Source: a virus
Taxonomy: Duplodnaviria > Heunggongvirae > Uroviricota > Caudoviricetes
Strand: one strand, 5' to 3'
IMG/VR virus record: IMGVR_UViG_2537562015_000012
Length of the DNA: 18,580 nt
The position numbers are program-made. Below, piece after piece: positions 3,001 to 9,000 of the stretch (position 1 is its first letter; each line of letters begins with the position of its first letter).

Positions 3001-6000
3001 TCTGAAACTCTACCCGGACGCGTTTAACGCCGCCTAACGGAGACTAAAAATGAACATCGAAAAAAGCAGATTAATTTCTGAGGCCGCCCCTCATCTGAAC
3101 GCCTCTCTGGGCACAATTAACGGTAATGAATTTGCCGCAATTGTCCCGGTTATTTCTGGTCATATAGGCGGGCGTGAAACCAATATTGTTAGCGCAAAAG
3201 CGTTACACAAAGCGTTGGGCGTGGGAAAAGACTTCTCTACATGGATCACTGATCGCATCTCTGAATATGACTTCACCATTGGGCACGATTACTCAGTCCA
3301 TAAAACAATTTCCCCAAATTTGGGGAAAAGCCCGAATGACGCGGCTTACAGCAAGATTAAGCAGTCTGGCAGACCCGGCAAAGACTATCTGTTAAGTGTC
3401 GGAATGGCGAAAGAACTGGCAATGATCGAACGCAATGATCAGGGTCGCGCTATCCGCCGTTATTTCATCCAGTGCGAGAAAGAATTACAGCGTAGCGTGC
3501 CTGAAATCGCCGCCCGCTATCGTCGCCAGCTAAAAGCCCGTATCAGTGCCGCAAACAACTTCAAGCCAATGTGCGATGCGCTGAATATGGCCCGTGCCGA
3601 GATGGGGAAAACGACGCAGCAACACCACTACACAAACGAGAGCAATATGATTTCTCGTATCGTTCTTGGTGGGCTAACTGCTAAGCAGTGGGCGCGGATA
3701 AATGGCTATTCTGGCGAACCTCGCGACCATATGAACGCAGAACAGCTTGAGCACCTCTCATATCTCGAAAGCACCAATATCACGTTAATTGATATGGGCA
3801 TGGAATATGAGCAGCGCAAAGGAGAACTCACCCGCCTGTCGCAACGCTGGCTCGCCAAGCGTCTGGAGGCGGTCCATGTTTAAGCCGACAGGAACACCAC
3901 AACCTCAAAAACGCTACAAAGATGCCCACGGAGCACTCGTTACTGTCGAAAGCGTGTCTCACAACCGAGTGACGTTTTATCGCGACGGGTATCAATCGCC
4001 ATGCGTACAACCGCTGGCACGTTTCATGAAGGAGTTCGCGGAGGTTAACAAATGCTAACCGCCCAGAAGAAGATATTTTCACTGGCTGGTATGTCGCCAA
4101 AATCCAGCAATATGACAGCAAAGTCAGACATTAATACAGCAGATACAAGCAAAGTTTATCATTTGCTGGTGGTAGGAGCGGATGCCTTAACTATGTCAGA
4201 AATTACGGTCGATGGTGTTAGCGTTGAGAAGGTCAGCGGCTATGCCAGAGAATTTCTGGTCGTAGATGGCTTTCTCTGCTCGTGTAGTGACTCCACAAAA
4301 ACCTTCGTCCACGCGCGTGACGTTAACGAAATGAGCGCGATGTACTGTGCTTCTGGTTCTTCCAATAGTGAGTTTTCGGAGTCCATAAAAAAGAGCTTGC
4401 CGTTATGCGGCAACACGGTTTATGGTTATAAGGCACCTCATAAAACGGGTGCCGGGATTGGCGTCCTAAAAATTCTGAAGGCGACATATGACGCGCCAAG
4501 CGTCTTTTTTTATGTCGTAGGTCTGACTCACCCATTTTTTGGGCGTTGGTGTATAATCCAGCGCCTTTGTCAATCAATGGTGGCTCAGGCGGGGGCTTCT
4601 TCGGAAGCGCCGGTATCCTTCAGAGCCGGTTACGCCAACCCTGTCTGGGCTACCACCAGCGAAATTGGCGTTTCCGGTGGTAGCGTAACCTGCTATCTGA
4701 AGGAGGCTGCCACATGCTGGCTACTACCCCTACCCAAAAAACGCAATTTATCTGGATTATCGCCGCAGTTCGCCGCGATTGCCCGACAATTACCGCCAAA
4801 ATTCATCATATTGCTGCCGAGTCTGAACGCGATGCTCGCCGTTCTCTGGTGCGCGATCACGTCTGCTTTTTTGCTGGTCGTATCCGCATGGAGGTGGCAC
4901 ATGATTAAAACCTACGATGTGCATATGGATCCCCTCGAACGCACAAGCCAGATCATCACACTGACAGAAGTGATTAACGACATTCTGGTGAGCAACTCTC
5001 CCTCACGAGACGAAAGACTGAAGGCGTTACTCGCGATATTGGATCTCGCCGTTCGTGACGTTCATTTCCTGCTGGAAGGTGGCGAAATGCCAGTAAAAAC
5101 GGGGGCAACCAATGAATAACTCAATTAATACCCCTCGCCTTACGTCCGCACTTCAATTAATCGAGCAAGCAGCGGCTGTCCTGGTTGCTGTCAGTCTTTC
5201 GGCTGAAGAAATGGACGCTGCTGATGTCGTGGATGCGATTAAAGCGTGCTCATCTTTGGTTAACGATGCCCGTGCAGAGCTGGTAATTCTTGGTGGTGAA
5301 AAATGAATATCAACTTAATTTATCGTCATCCGTGTGAGCTGGAAATTGAATCATTGCTGGGGCGCGAAGAGCCATATCCAGACACATTCACTCCCGCAGA
5401 TTGCGCGACTGAACGGCTTACCAGAGCGCGCACAGGTCTGGTTCATGTGATGAATGAGATTATTCCCTCGGTGGGAGGGGAACAGGCGACAGTAATCAAT
5501 AGCTGGCTACAAAAAGTTACCTCCCTGATAGATATCAGTTTAATCGATGTGGAGAGTGCGAAATGACCAACATCCAGCTCATTGAAGCGCAATGTCGCAT
5601 CGAACAGGTTCAGACTGTTTTAGGGTTCTGGCTTGAAGGGGCCAGCCCAAGCAACAGAGACAAGTTAATGATTGGCGCGGTTATGTCACTGCTCAATGGC
5701 GTACCAGAAGCTATTCAGGAAGCGGACGAATTGTTGGGCAAATATGAGTTACAGAATCATTCAGGCGAGGCGAAACATGAATAATTTCTTAACTTTCCAT
5801 GCAGAAGCAACGCCTGGCGGCGTAAACATCATGTACCGCAGCAACGATGGCATGACAGAACGCGTTGAGGCCGTCTCATATATTGATGCCGTAAATCGTC
5901 TGGATGCCGGGGATTATGACGATAAACCAGATGAAGGTATGTCAATACATCTCGCTATTGCCGATGGCGGCAACCAGGGATATTTCGATTACACATCACA

Positions 6001-9000
6001 GCATAACGTCATTATGTGGAGATGGCTGATCGCAACAGTATTCATGCTGGAAATGAGAGAGGAAAACGGCACCGTCAGCATTATTGATGACAGTGGCAAT
6101 CATTCCGTGGTTTCTGTTTATTCCAATGGCATCGTCGCCATGCCGCTGTATCCAGTAGCAGAGCGCCTCGCTATGGCAAACAACATTGAGGGCGCAATGA
6201 TCGAGAAATATGGTGTTGATGTCGGAACAAAGAATGCCATCATTTTTTACAGCAACATGTTCGATGTCGAACAGGGAACACTCACTTCGTTTGGGCGAGA
6301 AGTGCTTGCCGATCTTCACAACAGCTTTATTGCCGAACTAAACGAAAACGGCATCCCAGAAGCACCAGTGACGCACTAAACGGGGGCCAGAATGCGAAAC
6401 ATTGATCTTATCCGTCAGGTTATCAGTGCGTCTGAAAACAACTGGCCTCATGTGCTGGACTGCCTGAACATAAATGTCCCTGACTCTCCGCGCCGTCATG
6501 CTCCCTGCCCTGCATGTGGGGGCAAAGATCGATTCCGGTTCGATGACAACGGGCGCGGTAGCTTCATCTGTAATCAGTGCGGCGCTGGTGATGGGCTGGA
6601 TTTAATTAAACGCGTAAATAACTGCGACACAACAGAGGCGGCGCTTCTTGCCGCTGATGTTCTGGGTATTGATTACCGGACAACGGAAACACCAGAAGCC
6701 ACCAGCCAGAAACGGGAACAACTGGAAACCGAGCGCCAGCGACGCGAACAGGAGCGCCTGAAAAGGGCAGAGAAGGACGAACAACAAAGACGGGATACGT
6801 TTTCCCGTCAGTTTGATGACATGCGCAGAAAGGCTGTAAACGGCAAATCTGATTATCTGGTTGCGAAAGGGGTAGGTGATTTTACATTCCCTGTGTTGCC
6901 CGATGGATCTCTGTTGCTGGCGCTGGTGGATAAATCCGGCGCAGTCACAGCAGCACAGACTATTACCTCACATGGTGAAAAAAGACTCCTGACAGGTTCA
7001 GCAAAGCGAGGGGCATATCACGCCATAAACGCACAGAAACGACCTCACAGCATCATAATTGCTGAGGGGGTGGCTACCGCCCTGTCGTGCCATTTAATTC
7101 GCCCTGACGCAATGACAGTGGCAGCAATCGACGCTGGCAACCTGTTGCCAGTAGCGGAAGTCATGCGCAGAACATATCCACAGGCACAAATCATCATTGC
7201 CGCAGATAACGATCACCAGCAAGGAAACTCCGAAAGTGGAGGGATCAACACGGGGAAAGATGCCGCAGAGAGGGCCGCTATTTCCGTAGCTGGCTGGGTG
7301 TCTCTGCCACCGACTGACTATAAAGCCGACTGGAACGACTATCACCAACAACACGGGCTGGCGGCAGCCACAGCAGCATTTAAAGATTCGATGTACCAGC
7401 CACGGGGGAAAGGGGCGCAGGTGAAAAATCACAAACAGTCAGTCGGGGCGCTGAATGAGATCAGTTCTGGCGAGGTGTTAAGCGATGATGAAATTGCTGT
7501 CCTCGAAGAAATCAACCGGACGTTTACGCATGTCACCATCGGCGGGAAACACAAGGTGGTGTCGCTAAAGCCTTCTCAAACCGGCGGTGTATCGCACGTT
7601 TTCGAGGATTTATCACAATTTCAGCATTATTTTCATCATAAACCGAGAGTCGCCAGAAAGCTGGCGGGATCGGCGTGGCTGTCATGGAGTGGGAAGAACT
7701 ACAAGCCAGGAGGCGTAGGATTTTATCCAGTACCAGACAAATGCCCTGACGATGTTTTTAATCTGTATGAGGGGCTGGCACTGGAACCAATTGAAGGAGA
7801 TTGCACGGTATACCTTAATCACCTGTTGCAGGTTGTCTGTGCCGGTAATGAAGAGGCATACCAATATCTTATCCAGTGGATGGCGCACATTATCCAAAAG
7901 CCTGATGAAAAACCGTCCGTGGCAATCGTGATGAAATCTGTCCCGGGCACAGGGAAAGGCACAACGGTTAAACCGCTGCTGCAAATACTGGGGCAGTACG
8001 CCGCCCACATTAACGGGGCGGGACATATTTCAGGGCGCTTCAATTCAATACTTGCTAACAAGCTACTGGTATTTGCTGACGAAGTGACGATCCACAAGCC
8101 GTCTGAAGCTGACAGACTTAAAGCGATTATTAGCGAACCGACGTTTAACCTTGAGCGCAAGGGAATTGATGCTGAACCAATGCCGAATTTTGCCCGGTTG
8201 ATATTTGCCAGTAACAGCACACAGGTATTACAGGCAGGGATAAGAGAGCGCCGCTATCTCGTGCTTGAGCCATCTCCTGAAAAAGCACAGAGCCGGGAGT
8301 ATTTTGATCGGCTGTACAGTTGGCTTAATGATGGCGGTGCCGCAAAGTTGCTTTGGCATCTTAAAGGGGTGGATCTCTCAGGTTTTGACCCTCAACGAGC
8401 GCCACAGACCGATGCCTTACGTGAAGAAATCTTGCTGGGGCTGTCTGGCGTTGAATTGTTTCTTTATGGCGAGCTAATCAATGAACCTCCGTTTAATGGC
8501 GAAGTCCGTTTGTTTGCAAAGGATATGGTTAGTCGATTTGTAGCGTGGTCGCTTGAGCGTGGGGAAAAGCTTAAAGAACCAGCTGCCAGATCACTACTGG
8601 GTAAATCACTTGCACAAATGGGGCTGGTGAAGCATGGAAGACCAGACCGAGGGAATGGCGTGTTCTACGAACTACCAGAGGTCGGAGTTCTACAGGCTGC
8701 GTTTGCCCGTCTGATCGGTATGGGGGGTTATGATGTTTTTTAATATAGTCTTTTTACAAGAAGATCGTTTTTACCTGTACCACCTATACCACTTTGCTAA
8801 TTCAGCATTAAAAACAATGCGTTATAGTGGTACAGGTCAATATCTTACCTATACCAGACCTGTACCACCTATACCATTAACAAACGCATTTCTTCTGGCT
8901 GGCTGAGAGGGAACAACCAATGATGAGCACACCATTTTACAAAGTGCGCCAGTTAGCTTCTTCCTCTGGCTGGCAGCTACGGTTTGAGGGGCGTTCAGAC

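Follow-up and report, generated by a model that had tools for sequence, protein, structure and literature searches.

The stretch of DNA considered here, 18,580 nt of the Caudoviricetes record IMGVR_UViG_2537562015_000012 in IMG/VR (hereafter called the window), contains a run of co-oriented open reading frames (ORFs) whose starts overlap or adjoin the preceding stops, and which an initial annotation, made from the sequence alone, described as a chain of eight small protein genes (3876-6379) feeding into a primase. Our analysis supports the reading of this region as a single operon of a phage satellite, translationally coupled, which leads to the primase and is laid out like the left operon of P4, but the second member of the chain is not a plain gene: a promoter, a small RNA (sRNA) bearing a terminator, and an antisense RNA lie inside it. 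We consider it probable that the region represents the replication ("left") operon, under immunity control, of a phage-inducible chromosomal island (PICI) resembling EcCIMP1 and built on the plan of satellite P4. Established here are the anatomy of the region, its homology to P4, and the covariation of the C4 antisense RNA with its targets. The system itself is known from P4 and P1, and its RNAs have already been noted in PICIs; what is new is this copy, with a local variant in which a long eta-like ORF is out of frame with the icd-like gene, and with an exchangeable block that sets immunity specificity.

An RNA cassette inside a long reading frame

The second gene of the chain had been taken for a protein of ~220 aa ending near 4713, but no stop codon interrupts its frame from 4052 until 5119, and the scarcity of intergenic space noted along the chain does not hold for 4397-4713, where it was an artefact of this long frame running open over a promoter, a terminator, and two Rfam sRNA genes (Table 1). 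Relatives for comparison were collected by a primase scan, which gave 24 loci, mostly from other Enterobacterales. The internal promoter was called by conservation among elements and not by a consensus scan: the motif cTTGCCg-N17/18-TATGGT-N6 precedes the IsrK start in 12 of 13 PICI-type elements, P4 has TTGCCT/TATAGT in the same geometry, and the transcript is predicted to start near G4433. The IsrK-like RNA ends at an intrinsic terminator (hairpin 4490-4504, then a T7 run); the c4-a1b1 model RF03163 had no match in the window at E <= 0.1, and stood at 44.1 vs. 46.7 in P4. The C4-like RNA, 88 nt long with zero indels across 13 elements, folds alone into the structure of its family (minimum free energy -46.4 kcal/mol, z -4.8), that is, a long closing stem and two internal hairpins, the three helices being 100% paired in the 13 sequences, with 14 compensatory pairs. 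The two RNAs stand in the same order, isrK and then C4, upstream of an icd-like gene in 12 related loci.

The evidence that ties the C4-like RNA to its surroundings comes from boxes that pair with it. The 8-mer TCTGAAGG occurs in the window only as b1, as b' (in reverse complement), and as b2, the last of which overlaps the ribosome site of the icd-like gene. When the 13 elements (P4 and 12 distinct loci) are aligned from C4 as far as the start of icd, pairing reaches 98.4% for the C4 helices taken together with the b':b2 and a':a2 duplexes, compared with 34%-47% when the partner is slid by one to three columns; 27 pairs are altered on both sides, and none of 500 shuffles reaches such support. 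Compensatory changes affect seven of nine b':b2 pairs and six of seven a':a2 pairs, and the a1:a' and b1:b' duplexes that join IsrK to C4 are 99.5% paired, 13 of their 15 pairs being compensatory. At the level of sequence, this covariation demonstrates selection for pairing of C4 with its targets. A third b-like box within orf72 (CTGAAGGCG, 5017-5025) is identical in both of the immunity alleles described below and does not covary, and was set aside as chance. A perfect TATAAT (4552-4557) lies 16 nt 5' of C4 and is conserved or nearly so in several relatives, yet absent from those with 21-25-nt spacers (L009, L012); it was not called as a promoter because it has no -35 at a workable distance and is missing where spacers are short, and could be a secondary C4 promoter or chance.

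Satellite P4 presents the same parts in the same order: a long ORF coupled to alpA, an internal promoter, seqA/IsrK, CI/C4, a target on the Kil/Icd ribosome site, and, after kil/icd, small genes with 8-nt overlaps and then the primase. IsrK and C4 have been described as structural homologues of seqA and CI (PMC3632133, PMC4825925), and here, in P4, the CI RNA gene (8420-8507, minus strand) is found by the C4 model and the seqA region (8615-8692) by the isrK model. A 214-codon P4 ORF (8812 to 8168), named "put. ash gene" in an older P4 record, spans both RNAs; Phage_ASH matches its residues 37-161 and the Icd-like model residues 161-208, and the homology of its last 65 codons to the Icd-like protein of the window is obvious. 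It is followed by epsilon (8-nt overlap), orf151/cnr (8-nt overlap), orf106, and the alpha primase. Homology to P4 is detectable in the window for Eta (long ORF, BLASTP E 4e-17), Kil/Icd (E 9e-8), both RNAs, AlpA, and the N-terminal region of the primase (33% identity to alpha, BLASTP E 2e-40), and P4 Kil, the C-terminal part of Eta, scores on the same Icd-like model as its counterpart in the window (NF033153, E 1.4e-20, 73.1 bits). The window differs from P4 in that icd lies +1 out of frame with eta, the in-frame nested tail being orf72 instead; in the distance from IsrK to C4, 140 nt compared with 185 nt; and in its box sequences, hence in immunity specificity. The P4 epsilon family (PF25738) has no match among the small ORFs of the window, nor was a credible homologue of orf151 or orf106 found there.

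At least nine distinct box specificities are visible among the elements, and cognate duplexes of C4 with its leader average -34.8 kcal/mol, compared with -25.6 kcal/mol for non-cognate ones. How specificity changes can be followed by setting the window against five relatives that are ~95% identical to it, four islands of Escherichia coli (L027-L030) and one of Escherichia sp. (L004). Across 4511-4713, 36%-41% of sites are variable, without codon periodicity and without indels, whereas the neighbouring genes have 1%-13% variable sites and, in most, a third-position bias; counted by codon position in the eta frame, variable sites number 12/10/14 in C4 and 9/9/7 in the spacer. The variation resolves into two alleles, a common one in the five relatives and another in the window, between which all three box sets have changed together. 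The exchanged block (~4457-4704, ~250 nt), likewise 36%-41% variable, comprises the IsrK boxes, the loops and stems of C4, and the downstream boxes, with its length unchanged. The window allele occurs at >=95% identity in ~289 E. coli genomes. The comparison predicts that near-identical islands fall into hetero-immune types of one PICI.

The eta-like frame and competing explanations

The eta-like ORF traverses the promoter, IsrK, C4, and the icd ribosome site, overlaps the icd-like gene (4714-4908) in a different frame, which it crosses at +1, and is in frame with orf72 (4901-5119). Pfam Phage_ASH (PF10554) matches its residues 124-232 (E 6e-34), and this match covers nucleotides 4421-4747, exactly the stretch from IsrK through C4 to the leader (8330-8704, minus strand, in P4, L026). 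The name given to the ORF by the NCBI annotation pipeline (PGAP) is "ash family protein"; it is flagged as a pseudogene in FORC_031 and MP1, and other strains keep it as an intact protein of 355 aa. In all 14 elements, which are related loci, so that the counts overstate the number of independent cases, the frame is open from at least 84 nt (up to 693 nt) 5' of IsrK to at least the end of icd. The distance between the starts of IsrK and C4 is 140 nt in nine elements and 128, 125, 101, 98, or 185 nt in the others, all five variants deviating from 140 by multiples of 3, and in 13 of the 14 eta begins at an in-frame ATG that has a GGAGG-type Shine-Dalgarno sequence and sits on the stop of whichever gene lies upstream. 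The encoded peptide behaves otherwise: the ratio of nonsynonymous to synonymous polymorphism (pN/pS) in the eta frame reaches 0.86 across 4397-4711 and lies at 0.4-0.57 in the N-terminal 115 codons (4052-4396), compared with mostly 0-0.46 in neighbouring genes, and the N-terminal parts are non-homologous between loci, ranging from ~28 to ~186 codons.

A frame that stays free of stops, accepts indels only in threes, and couples its start to any upstream gene argues that translatability is selected, not the peptide. We therefore entertain, tentatively and at somewhat short of even confidence, the idea that the eta-like/Ash ORF is kept open only as a ribosome track, while its peptide drifts near-neutrally. 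If so, PF10554 and the label "ash family protein" describe the translation of an RNA cassette and not a protein domain. The authors of the Gifsy-1 study likewise reported that orf45's nucleotide sequence is conserved and its amino-acid sequence variable (PMC4825925). The relation of the track to icd/kil differs among elements: the gene is nested in frame with eta in eight of 14, including P4, and eta runs +1 relative to icd in six, including the window. The +1 frame over icd is free of stops in all six elements in which eta uses it but in only one of the eight in which eta is in frame, and synonymous-codon shuffles give a probability of 8%-17% per locus that the +1 frame lacks stops when the Icd protein is kept. 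The track would have slipped by +1 relative to icd/kil in about half of the family, remaining open across the gene and closing only at the stop of the one that follows, and escape that depends on translation would then be independent of frame.

These observations also bear on what else the region might be. That it consists of eight ordinary protein genes in a row, the second of ~220 aa and with no regulatory element inside, is scarcely credible even though the overlaps and Shine-Dalgarno sequences all exist and the frame is open across 4052-4713: there is no stop near 4713; the frame encloses two Rfam RNAs together with a terminator and a conserved promoter; and over 4397-4711 the pN/pS of 0.86, without codon periodicity, goes with variation that tracks RNA pairing. 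The Rfam RNAs, the lack of codon periodicity, and the covariation refute gene 2 as an ordinary gene. It is less far-fetched, though still unlikely, that the "Ash family protein" of 355 aa functions as such, as a member of the Bro/antirepressor network (the treatment it receives from PGAP and Pfam), that its amino-acid sequence matters, and that the RNAs are merely embedded in its gene. The strength of the Phage_ASH match, the intact ORF that PGAP keeps in several strains, the preservation of the frame in all 14 elements with indels in multiples of 3, the experimentally shown translation of P4 Eta (PMC10111431) and Gifsy-1 ORF45 (PMC4825925), and some constraint on the N-terminal 115 codons would all fit a protein. 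On the other hand, the part that carries the Ash domain has the pN/pS of 0.86 and no third-position bias, the N-terminal parts of differing length share no homology between loci, the frame in six elements crosses icd out of frame into the following gene, which makes the C-terminal sequence incidental, and the Gifsy-1 precedent is likewise one of variable amino acids over conserved nucleotides (PMC4825925).

A further alternative, which we regard as quite improbable, is that the cassette acts mainly in trans, giving cross-immunity or defence against co-resident or incoming elements (a helper phage or rival satellites) with matching a/b boxes, rather than controlling its own operon. Such a role has been speculated upon (PMC3632133), EcCIMP1 confers an unexplained superinfection immunity against its helper (PMC11773190), the box specificities diversify fast and are swapped as a block between near-identical islands, the allele of the window is widespread in E. 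coli, and IsrK-C4 modules also occur in temperate phages, for example SfV and Stx phages. Yet the cognate targets flank C4 in cis in every element, and the b boxes of the window are b1, b', and b2 only. The helper Kapi1 has no IsrK or C4, and carries sar RNA instead; the one match of the EcCIMP1 C4 loop in Kapi1 (GTACGAGGAAG, on the ribosome site of the antirepressor Kapi1_032) is at the level of chance, with shuffled genomes averaging 1.5 sites and other alleles matching equally elsewhere, and was rejected as a target. A trans role would in any case supplement control in cis, not replace it.

Proposed operation of the switch

In P4, transcription from a constitutive promoter within eta soon terminates through RNA interactions at CI and seqA, the transcript being processed into CI, and Kil is a truncated Eta; full Eta is made only from the upstream late promoter, coupled to the alpA homologue, and its translation blocks the termination (PMC10111431). 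Both Rfam models have been reported to match several Gram-negative PICIs (PMC10111431). By analogy, transcription from the internal promoter of the window would yield an IsrK/seqA-like RNA ending at the intrinsic terminator, and read-through with processing would yield C4. In the resting island, C4 would pair with a2 and b2 and block translation of icd, as P1 and P4 suggest, while the IsrK/seqA-like RNA might join in the pairing of C4 or titrate it, for which P4, P1, and Gifsy-1 are the models; the Icd/Kil-like gene is most likely the first gene under C4 control. With icd blocked, the transcript of orf72, orf64, orf87, orf73, orf200, and the primase would be terminated by Rho or left untranslated, and replication would be off; the block would spread from icd to the primase because the start of each following gene coincides with the stop before it or lies no more than 12 nt away. 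When a helper phage induces the alpA operon, ribosomes arriving from upstream would translate the eta-like ORF through IsrK, C4, and the target boxes, preventing RNA pairing and termination, and the small genes and primase would be expressed. The start/stop overlaps would then be the wiring that passes one RNA-controlled decision at a ribosome site along ~4.7 kb.

Several points weigh against this account. Rho dependence, processing by RNase P, and escape through eta translation are carried over from P4 and P1, and icd is not nested in frame in eta as P4 kil is, so that the P4 model cannot be copied exactly. The internal promoter has eight of 12 consensus matches, below the threshold of the consensus scan, by which it was therefore not listed. 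The IsrK terminator would stop part of the transcripts that come from alpA unless translation suppresses it. Finally, four loci that share the primase and several of the small genes (L010, L014, L017, and L018) have no IsrK or C4 match, so the switch is not obligatory for operons of this type, and another means of control must operate in these islands; L017 and L018 still carry icd-like genes.

The P1 c4/icd system is reportedly similar in that C4 carries a' and b', with a1/b1 upstream and a2/b2 downstream, b2 lying on the icd ribosome site, and in the immI region of P1 and P7 icd is said to be translationally coupled to the next gene. The likeness to P1 rests on membership in the Rfam C4 and NCBIfam Icd-like families, which was tested here. 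Unlike immI of P1 and P7 (c4, icd, ant), the window has 3' of icd a gene other than the Ant antirepressor, an AntA-family gene upstream of the cassette, and an operon that ends in a primase.

The isrK-orf45-anrP-isrJ region of Gifsy-1 shares with the window an IsrK that exists in a short terminated form and a read-through form, a processed C4-like RNA (STnc1160), a translated ORF over the RNA region, and AUGA coupling to the next gene (PMC4825925), and the bases G28 and G31, whose pairing was established there by compensatory-mutation experiments, correspond to a1 box positions as numbered here (PMC4825925). It differs in that its 45-codon ORF begins after IsrK and its output is an antirepressor that turns on an antiterminator, whereas in the window the ORF begins 381 nt upstream of IsrK, with an icd-like gene and a replication operon as the output.

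Chain genes, the island, and its relatives

The overlaps of 7, 8, 8, 4, 4, and 8 nt given by the initial annotation, its example junctions, and its 12-bp gap before the primase are all correct on inspection of the sequence (Table 1): the ATG of the primase (6392) lies 12 nt past the stop at 6379, and a GGAG-type Shine-Dalgarno sequence precedes every start in the chain. The coupled operon reaches further upstream than had been described, to the alpA-like gene at 2388; along this part (2388-3883), the genes overlap by 1 nt, stand 12 nt apart, and overlap by 8 nt at the successive junctions. In 12 of 13 loci the gene after icd begins on the icd stop, as epsilon does in P4, irrespective of which gene it is; this slot holds an orf72-like, an orf87-like, or another small gene in different loci. 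Coupling that is kept in relatives whichever gene is the neighbour goes beyond chance. The initial annotation had made its proposal depend on conservation of the reading frames in orthologous regions, and there the frames are conserved, at 33%-62% identity in other genera.

Table 1. Coordinates of genes, RNA features, pairing boxes, and gene junctions in the window
Feature	Position	Strand	Details
AlpA-like helix-turn-helix gene	2388-2606	+	Pfam/PHROG matches
orf143	2606-3037	+	One of the upstream coupled genes
AntA-family antirepressor (antA)	3050-3883	+	Pfam/PHROG matches
DUF4222 gene, 60 aa	3876-4058	+	Pfam PF13973, E 6e-25
Junction	3876		ATGTTTAA; 8-nt overlap of DUF4222 gene with upstream antA
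Eta-like long ORF, 355 codons	4052-5119	+	No internal stop; begins on DUF4222 stop, ends as orf72
Junction	4052		ATGCTAA; 7-nt overlap of long ORF start with DUF4222 stop
Internal promoter, P4 PLE equivalent	4397-4426	+	-35 TTGCCG 4397-4402; -10 TATGGT 4421-4426
IsrK/seqA/c4-a1b1-like sRNA	4433-4510	+	Rfam RF01394, 60.5 bits vs. gathering 50
Box a1	4458-4464	+	In IsrK
Box b1	4474-4481	+	In IsrK
C4/P4 CI-like antisense immunity RNA	4573-4660	+	Rfam RF01695, 79.9 bits vs. gathering 45, full length 1-87, E 1.4e-14
Box b'	4617-4624	+	C4 loop
Box a'	4632-4638	+	C4 single-stranded segment
Box a2 (seqC-like)	4665-4671	+	Downstream leader
Box b2 (seqC-like)	4696-4704	+	Overlaps icd-like Shine-Dalgarno AAGGAGG 4700-4706
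Icd/P4 Kil-like gene, 64 aa	4714-4908	+	NCBIfam NF033153, E 3.9e-20, 71.6 bits vs. cut-off 25
Junction	4901		ATGATTAA; 8-nt overlap of orf72 start with icd-like stop
orf72	4901-5119	+	Start overlaps icd stop; in-frame tail of eta-like ORF
Junction	5112		ATGAATAA; 8-nt overlap, orf64 start
orf64	5112-5306	+	Variable sites by codon position 1/1/5
Junction	5303		ATGA; 4-nt overlap, orf87 start
orf87	5303-5566	+	Homologues, 40%-54% identity, in L009-L012, L019, L020
Junction	5563		ATGA; 4-nt overlap, orf73 start
orf73	5563-5784	+	PHROG 20558, E 3e-9; variable sites by codon position 0/0/3
Junction	5777		ATGAATAA; 8-nt overlap, orf200 start
orf200	5777-6379	+	PHROG 1515, E 4e-47; variable sites by codon position 16/16/45
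Primase-helicase (zinc ribbon, Toprim, DUF5906)	6392-8743	+	Pfam; last large gene fed by the chain

None of the chain proteins had been credited with a recognisable motif, but DUF4222, Icd-like (NF033153), and Phage_ASH matches were all found. The DUF4222 gene has variable sites 1/0/6 by codon position and homologues in nine related loci. The icd-like protein has counterparts of 61%-100% amino-acid identity in 14 loci and a weaker one, at 37%, in L018. To judge from its family, this is the only small gene of the chain to which a function can be attached, and it would be cell-division inhibition or killing, not the anti-defence that had been suggested, along with helper-phage interference, for individual genes of the chain.

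We judge orf72, orf64, orf87, orf73, and orf200 to be real genes because their frames are conserved and most show codon-position bias or low pN/pS. For orf72, which is not a separate gene in the PGAP annotation, variable sites fall 1/2/6 by codon position, pN/pS is 0.11-0.33, and homologues with 39%-48% identity occur in L007, L014, and L020; orf64 has a 62% identical homologue in L010. Homologues of orf87, a gene with little codon-position bias among close relatives, stand directly after icd in some loci. The orf73 protein (WP_000181940.1) is identical in FORC_031, EcCIMP1, UPEC132, APEC E18005, and TBU0218. The most widely conserved chain gene is orf200, nearly always just 5' of the primase, with 471 homologues at E <= 1e-5; the 120 matches listed name Enterobacteriaceae as their organisms and include no informative protein name.

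Searches for function returned little. Beyond the matches given, the five small proteins have none in Pfam or NCBIfam, and their PHROG families carry no function; neither orf64 (Pfam, NCBIfam, PHROG, PADLOC, PDB) nor orf87 has a significant family match. PADLOC gave nothing usable, its two CARF matches to orf64 (E ~0.008) lying under any useful threshold, and overall no defence, anti-defence, or structural match emerged from PADLOC, Pfam, NCBIfam, a PDB sequence search, and two AlphaFold models. The PDB sequence search found nothing for orf72, orf64, or orf73; a match of orf87 to 7ong, a designed repeat protein, had no single stretch over threshold and was discarded as spurious, and the best hit of the orf200 profile was a designed PPR protein at E 0.016 only. 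The AlphaFold models of orf200 (25 sequences; predicted local distance difference test [pLDDT] 54.7) and of orf73 (six sequences; pLDDT 64, predicted template-modelling score 0.32, three helices) are too poor for a fold search. An equation of orf200 with P4 orf106 (DUF5375) was rejected (BLASTP E 0.14; hhalign 1.7%; no member matching PF17345 at E <= 0.1), although two orf200 homologues bear a precomputed PF17345 tag. By eye, orf72, orf64, orf87, and orf73 look alike, with a helix, an SPSxxD-type loop, and a helix, but tandem paralogy was rejected (Smith-Waterman z <= 2.4; local hhalign <= 12% probability). Some E. coli genomes encode 115-117-aa fusions of an orf87 N terminus with an orf73 C terminus (P0135, P0141), which are no proof of homology. 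One orf87 homologue is misnamed "nicotinic acetylcholine receptor subunit beta" in a database, and L030 3028-3291 was noted among the relatives of orf87 and orf73.

The island adjoins yicC and runs from the integrase through the AlpA-like gene, orf143, the AntA-family antirepressor, DUF4222, and the chain to the primase and P22-like DNA-ejection genes. Positions 1-13778 of the window are 100% identical to the chromosome of E. coli FORC_031, in which an IS3 fragment and a group II intron (ltrA) are inserted at the equivalent of position 13778 (L001 23903-27482; window 13774-14083); the window lacks the insertion, and its 698-aa ORF (11987-14083) is therefore intact, so that the window derives from a near relative of FORC_031 and not from this assembly. 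Of 5426 complete E. coli genomes, 474 (~9%) hold 80% or more of the 2.5-kb chain. At the protein level, the relatives form a mosaic of synteny, with the orf200 family in 16 elements (the window counted), DUF4222 in 18, orf87 in 11, orf73 in 10, orf72 in four loci, and orf64 in two. The layout is that of a Gram-negative PICI of the EcCIMP1 type (int, alpA, a regulatory zone, and a primase) without a full virion gene set. The P22-like DNA-ejection genes (451 aa and 698 aa; window 10647-14083) also occur in EcCIMP1 and, as DNA transfer proteins, in the helper Kapi1; they are unusual satellite cargo and may bear on helper specificity. The Rfam int-alpA RNA (RF02996) lies between int and alpA in 13 loci (L002, L004, L005, L009, L011-L014, L017, L018, L021, L022, and L025) and was not detected at its gathering threshold in the corresponding interval of the window (1270-2387), part of which is filled by a 216-aa ORF (1266-1916).

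EcCIMP1 is a PICI of E. coli MP1 whose excision and transfer need the helper Lederbergvirus Kapi1 and AlpA, and the paper describing it makes no mention of IsrK or C4 RNAs (PMC11773190). Window positions 2596-6377 are ~95% identical to it (~3.8 kb), and it has the same chain (alpA-orf143-antA-DUF4222-'ash'-icd-orf64-orf87-orf73-orf200), with identical DUF4222 and orf73 proteins. It differs in its immunity allele (the ~4457-4704 block), in its integrase and site (tRNA-Thr near proA in MP1, next to yicC in the window), in two extra small ORFs before the primase, and in having a TOPRIM/DUF927 primase, compared with DUF5906 in the window island. The first ~278 codons of the primase (zinc ribbon and Toprim, 6392-7226) are 93% identical in nucleotides to those of EcCIMP1 (L027), and the remainder is DUF5906 in one and DUF927 in the other, which looks like a module swap within the primase gene.

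The island of the window falls outside the core of P4-like satellites as defined by Moura de Sousa and Rocha (int, psu, delta, sid, alpA, epsilon, alpha) in respect of psu, delta, sid, and epsilon: the PGAP annotation of the identical FORC_031 island, in which not every ORF was scanned with profiles, lists no psu, delta, or sid. The survey of P4-like satellites took PF10554 as its profile for epsilon (PMC8628076). P4 epsilon, however, matches PF25738 and not PF10554, which matches the eta/CI region, so that the "epsilon" component of the survey marks the eta/CI immunity region.

No new kind of system is revealed by these results; of more interest is the possibility that the "Ash family protein" is no protein but only a track for ribosomes across an RNA cassette. 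What the results do mean is that a stretch labelled "ash family protein" and hypothetical proteins in ~9% of complete E. coli genomes is probably a P4-type RNA immunity switch with an Icd/Kil-like toxin, that satellite surveys using PF10554 as a protein marker detect the RNA cassette, and that in near-identical islands immunity types would be set by an exchangeable block of ~250 nt. The result predicts how islands of the EcCIMP1 type silence their primase and how transcription driven by AlpA escapes that silencing.

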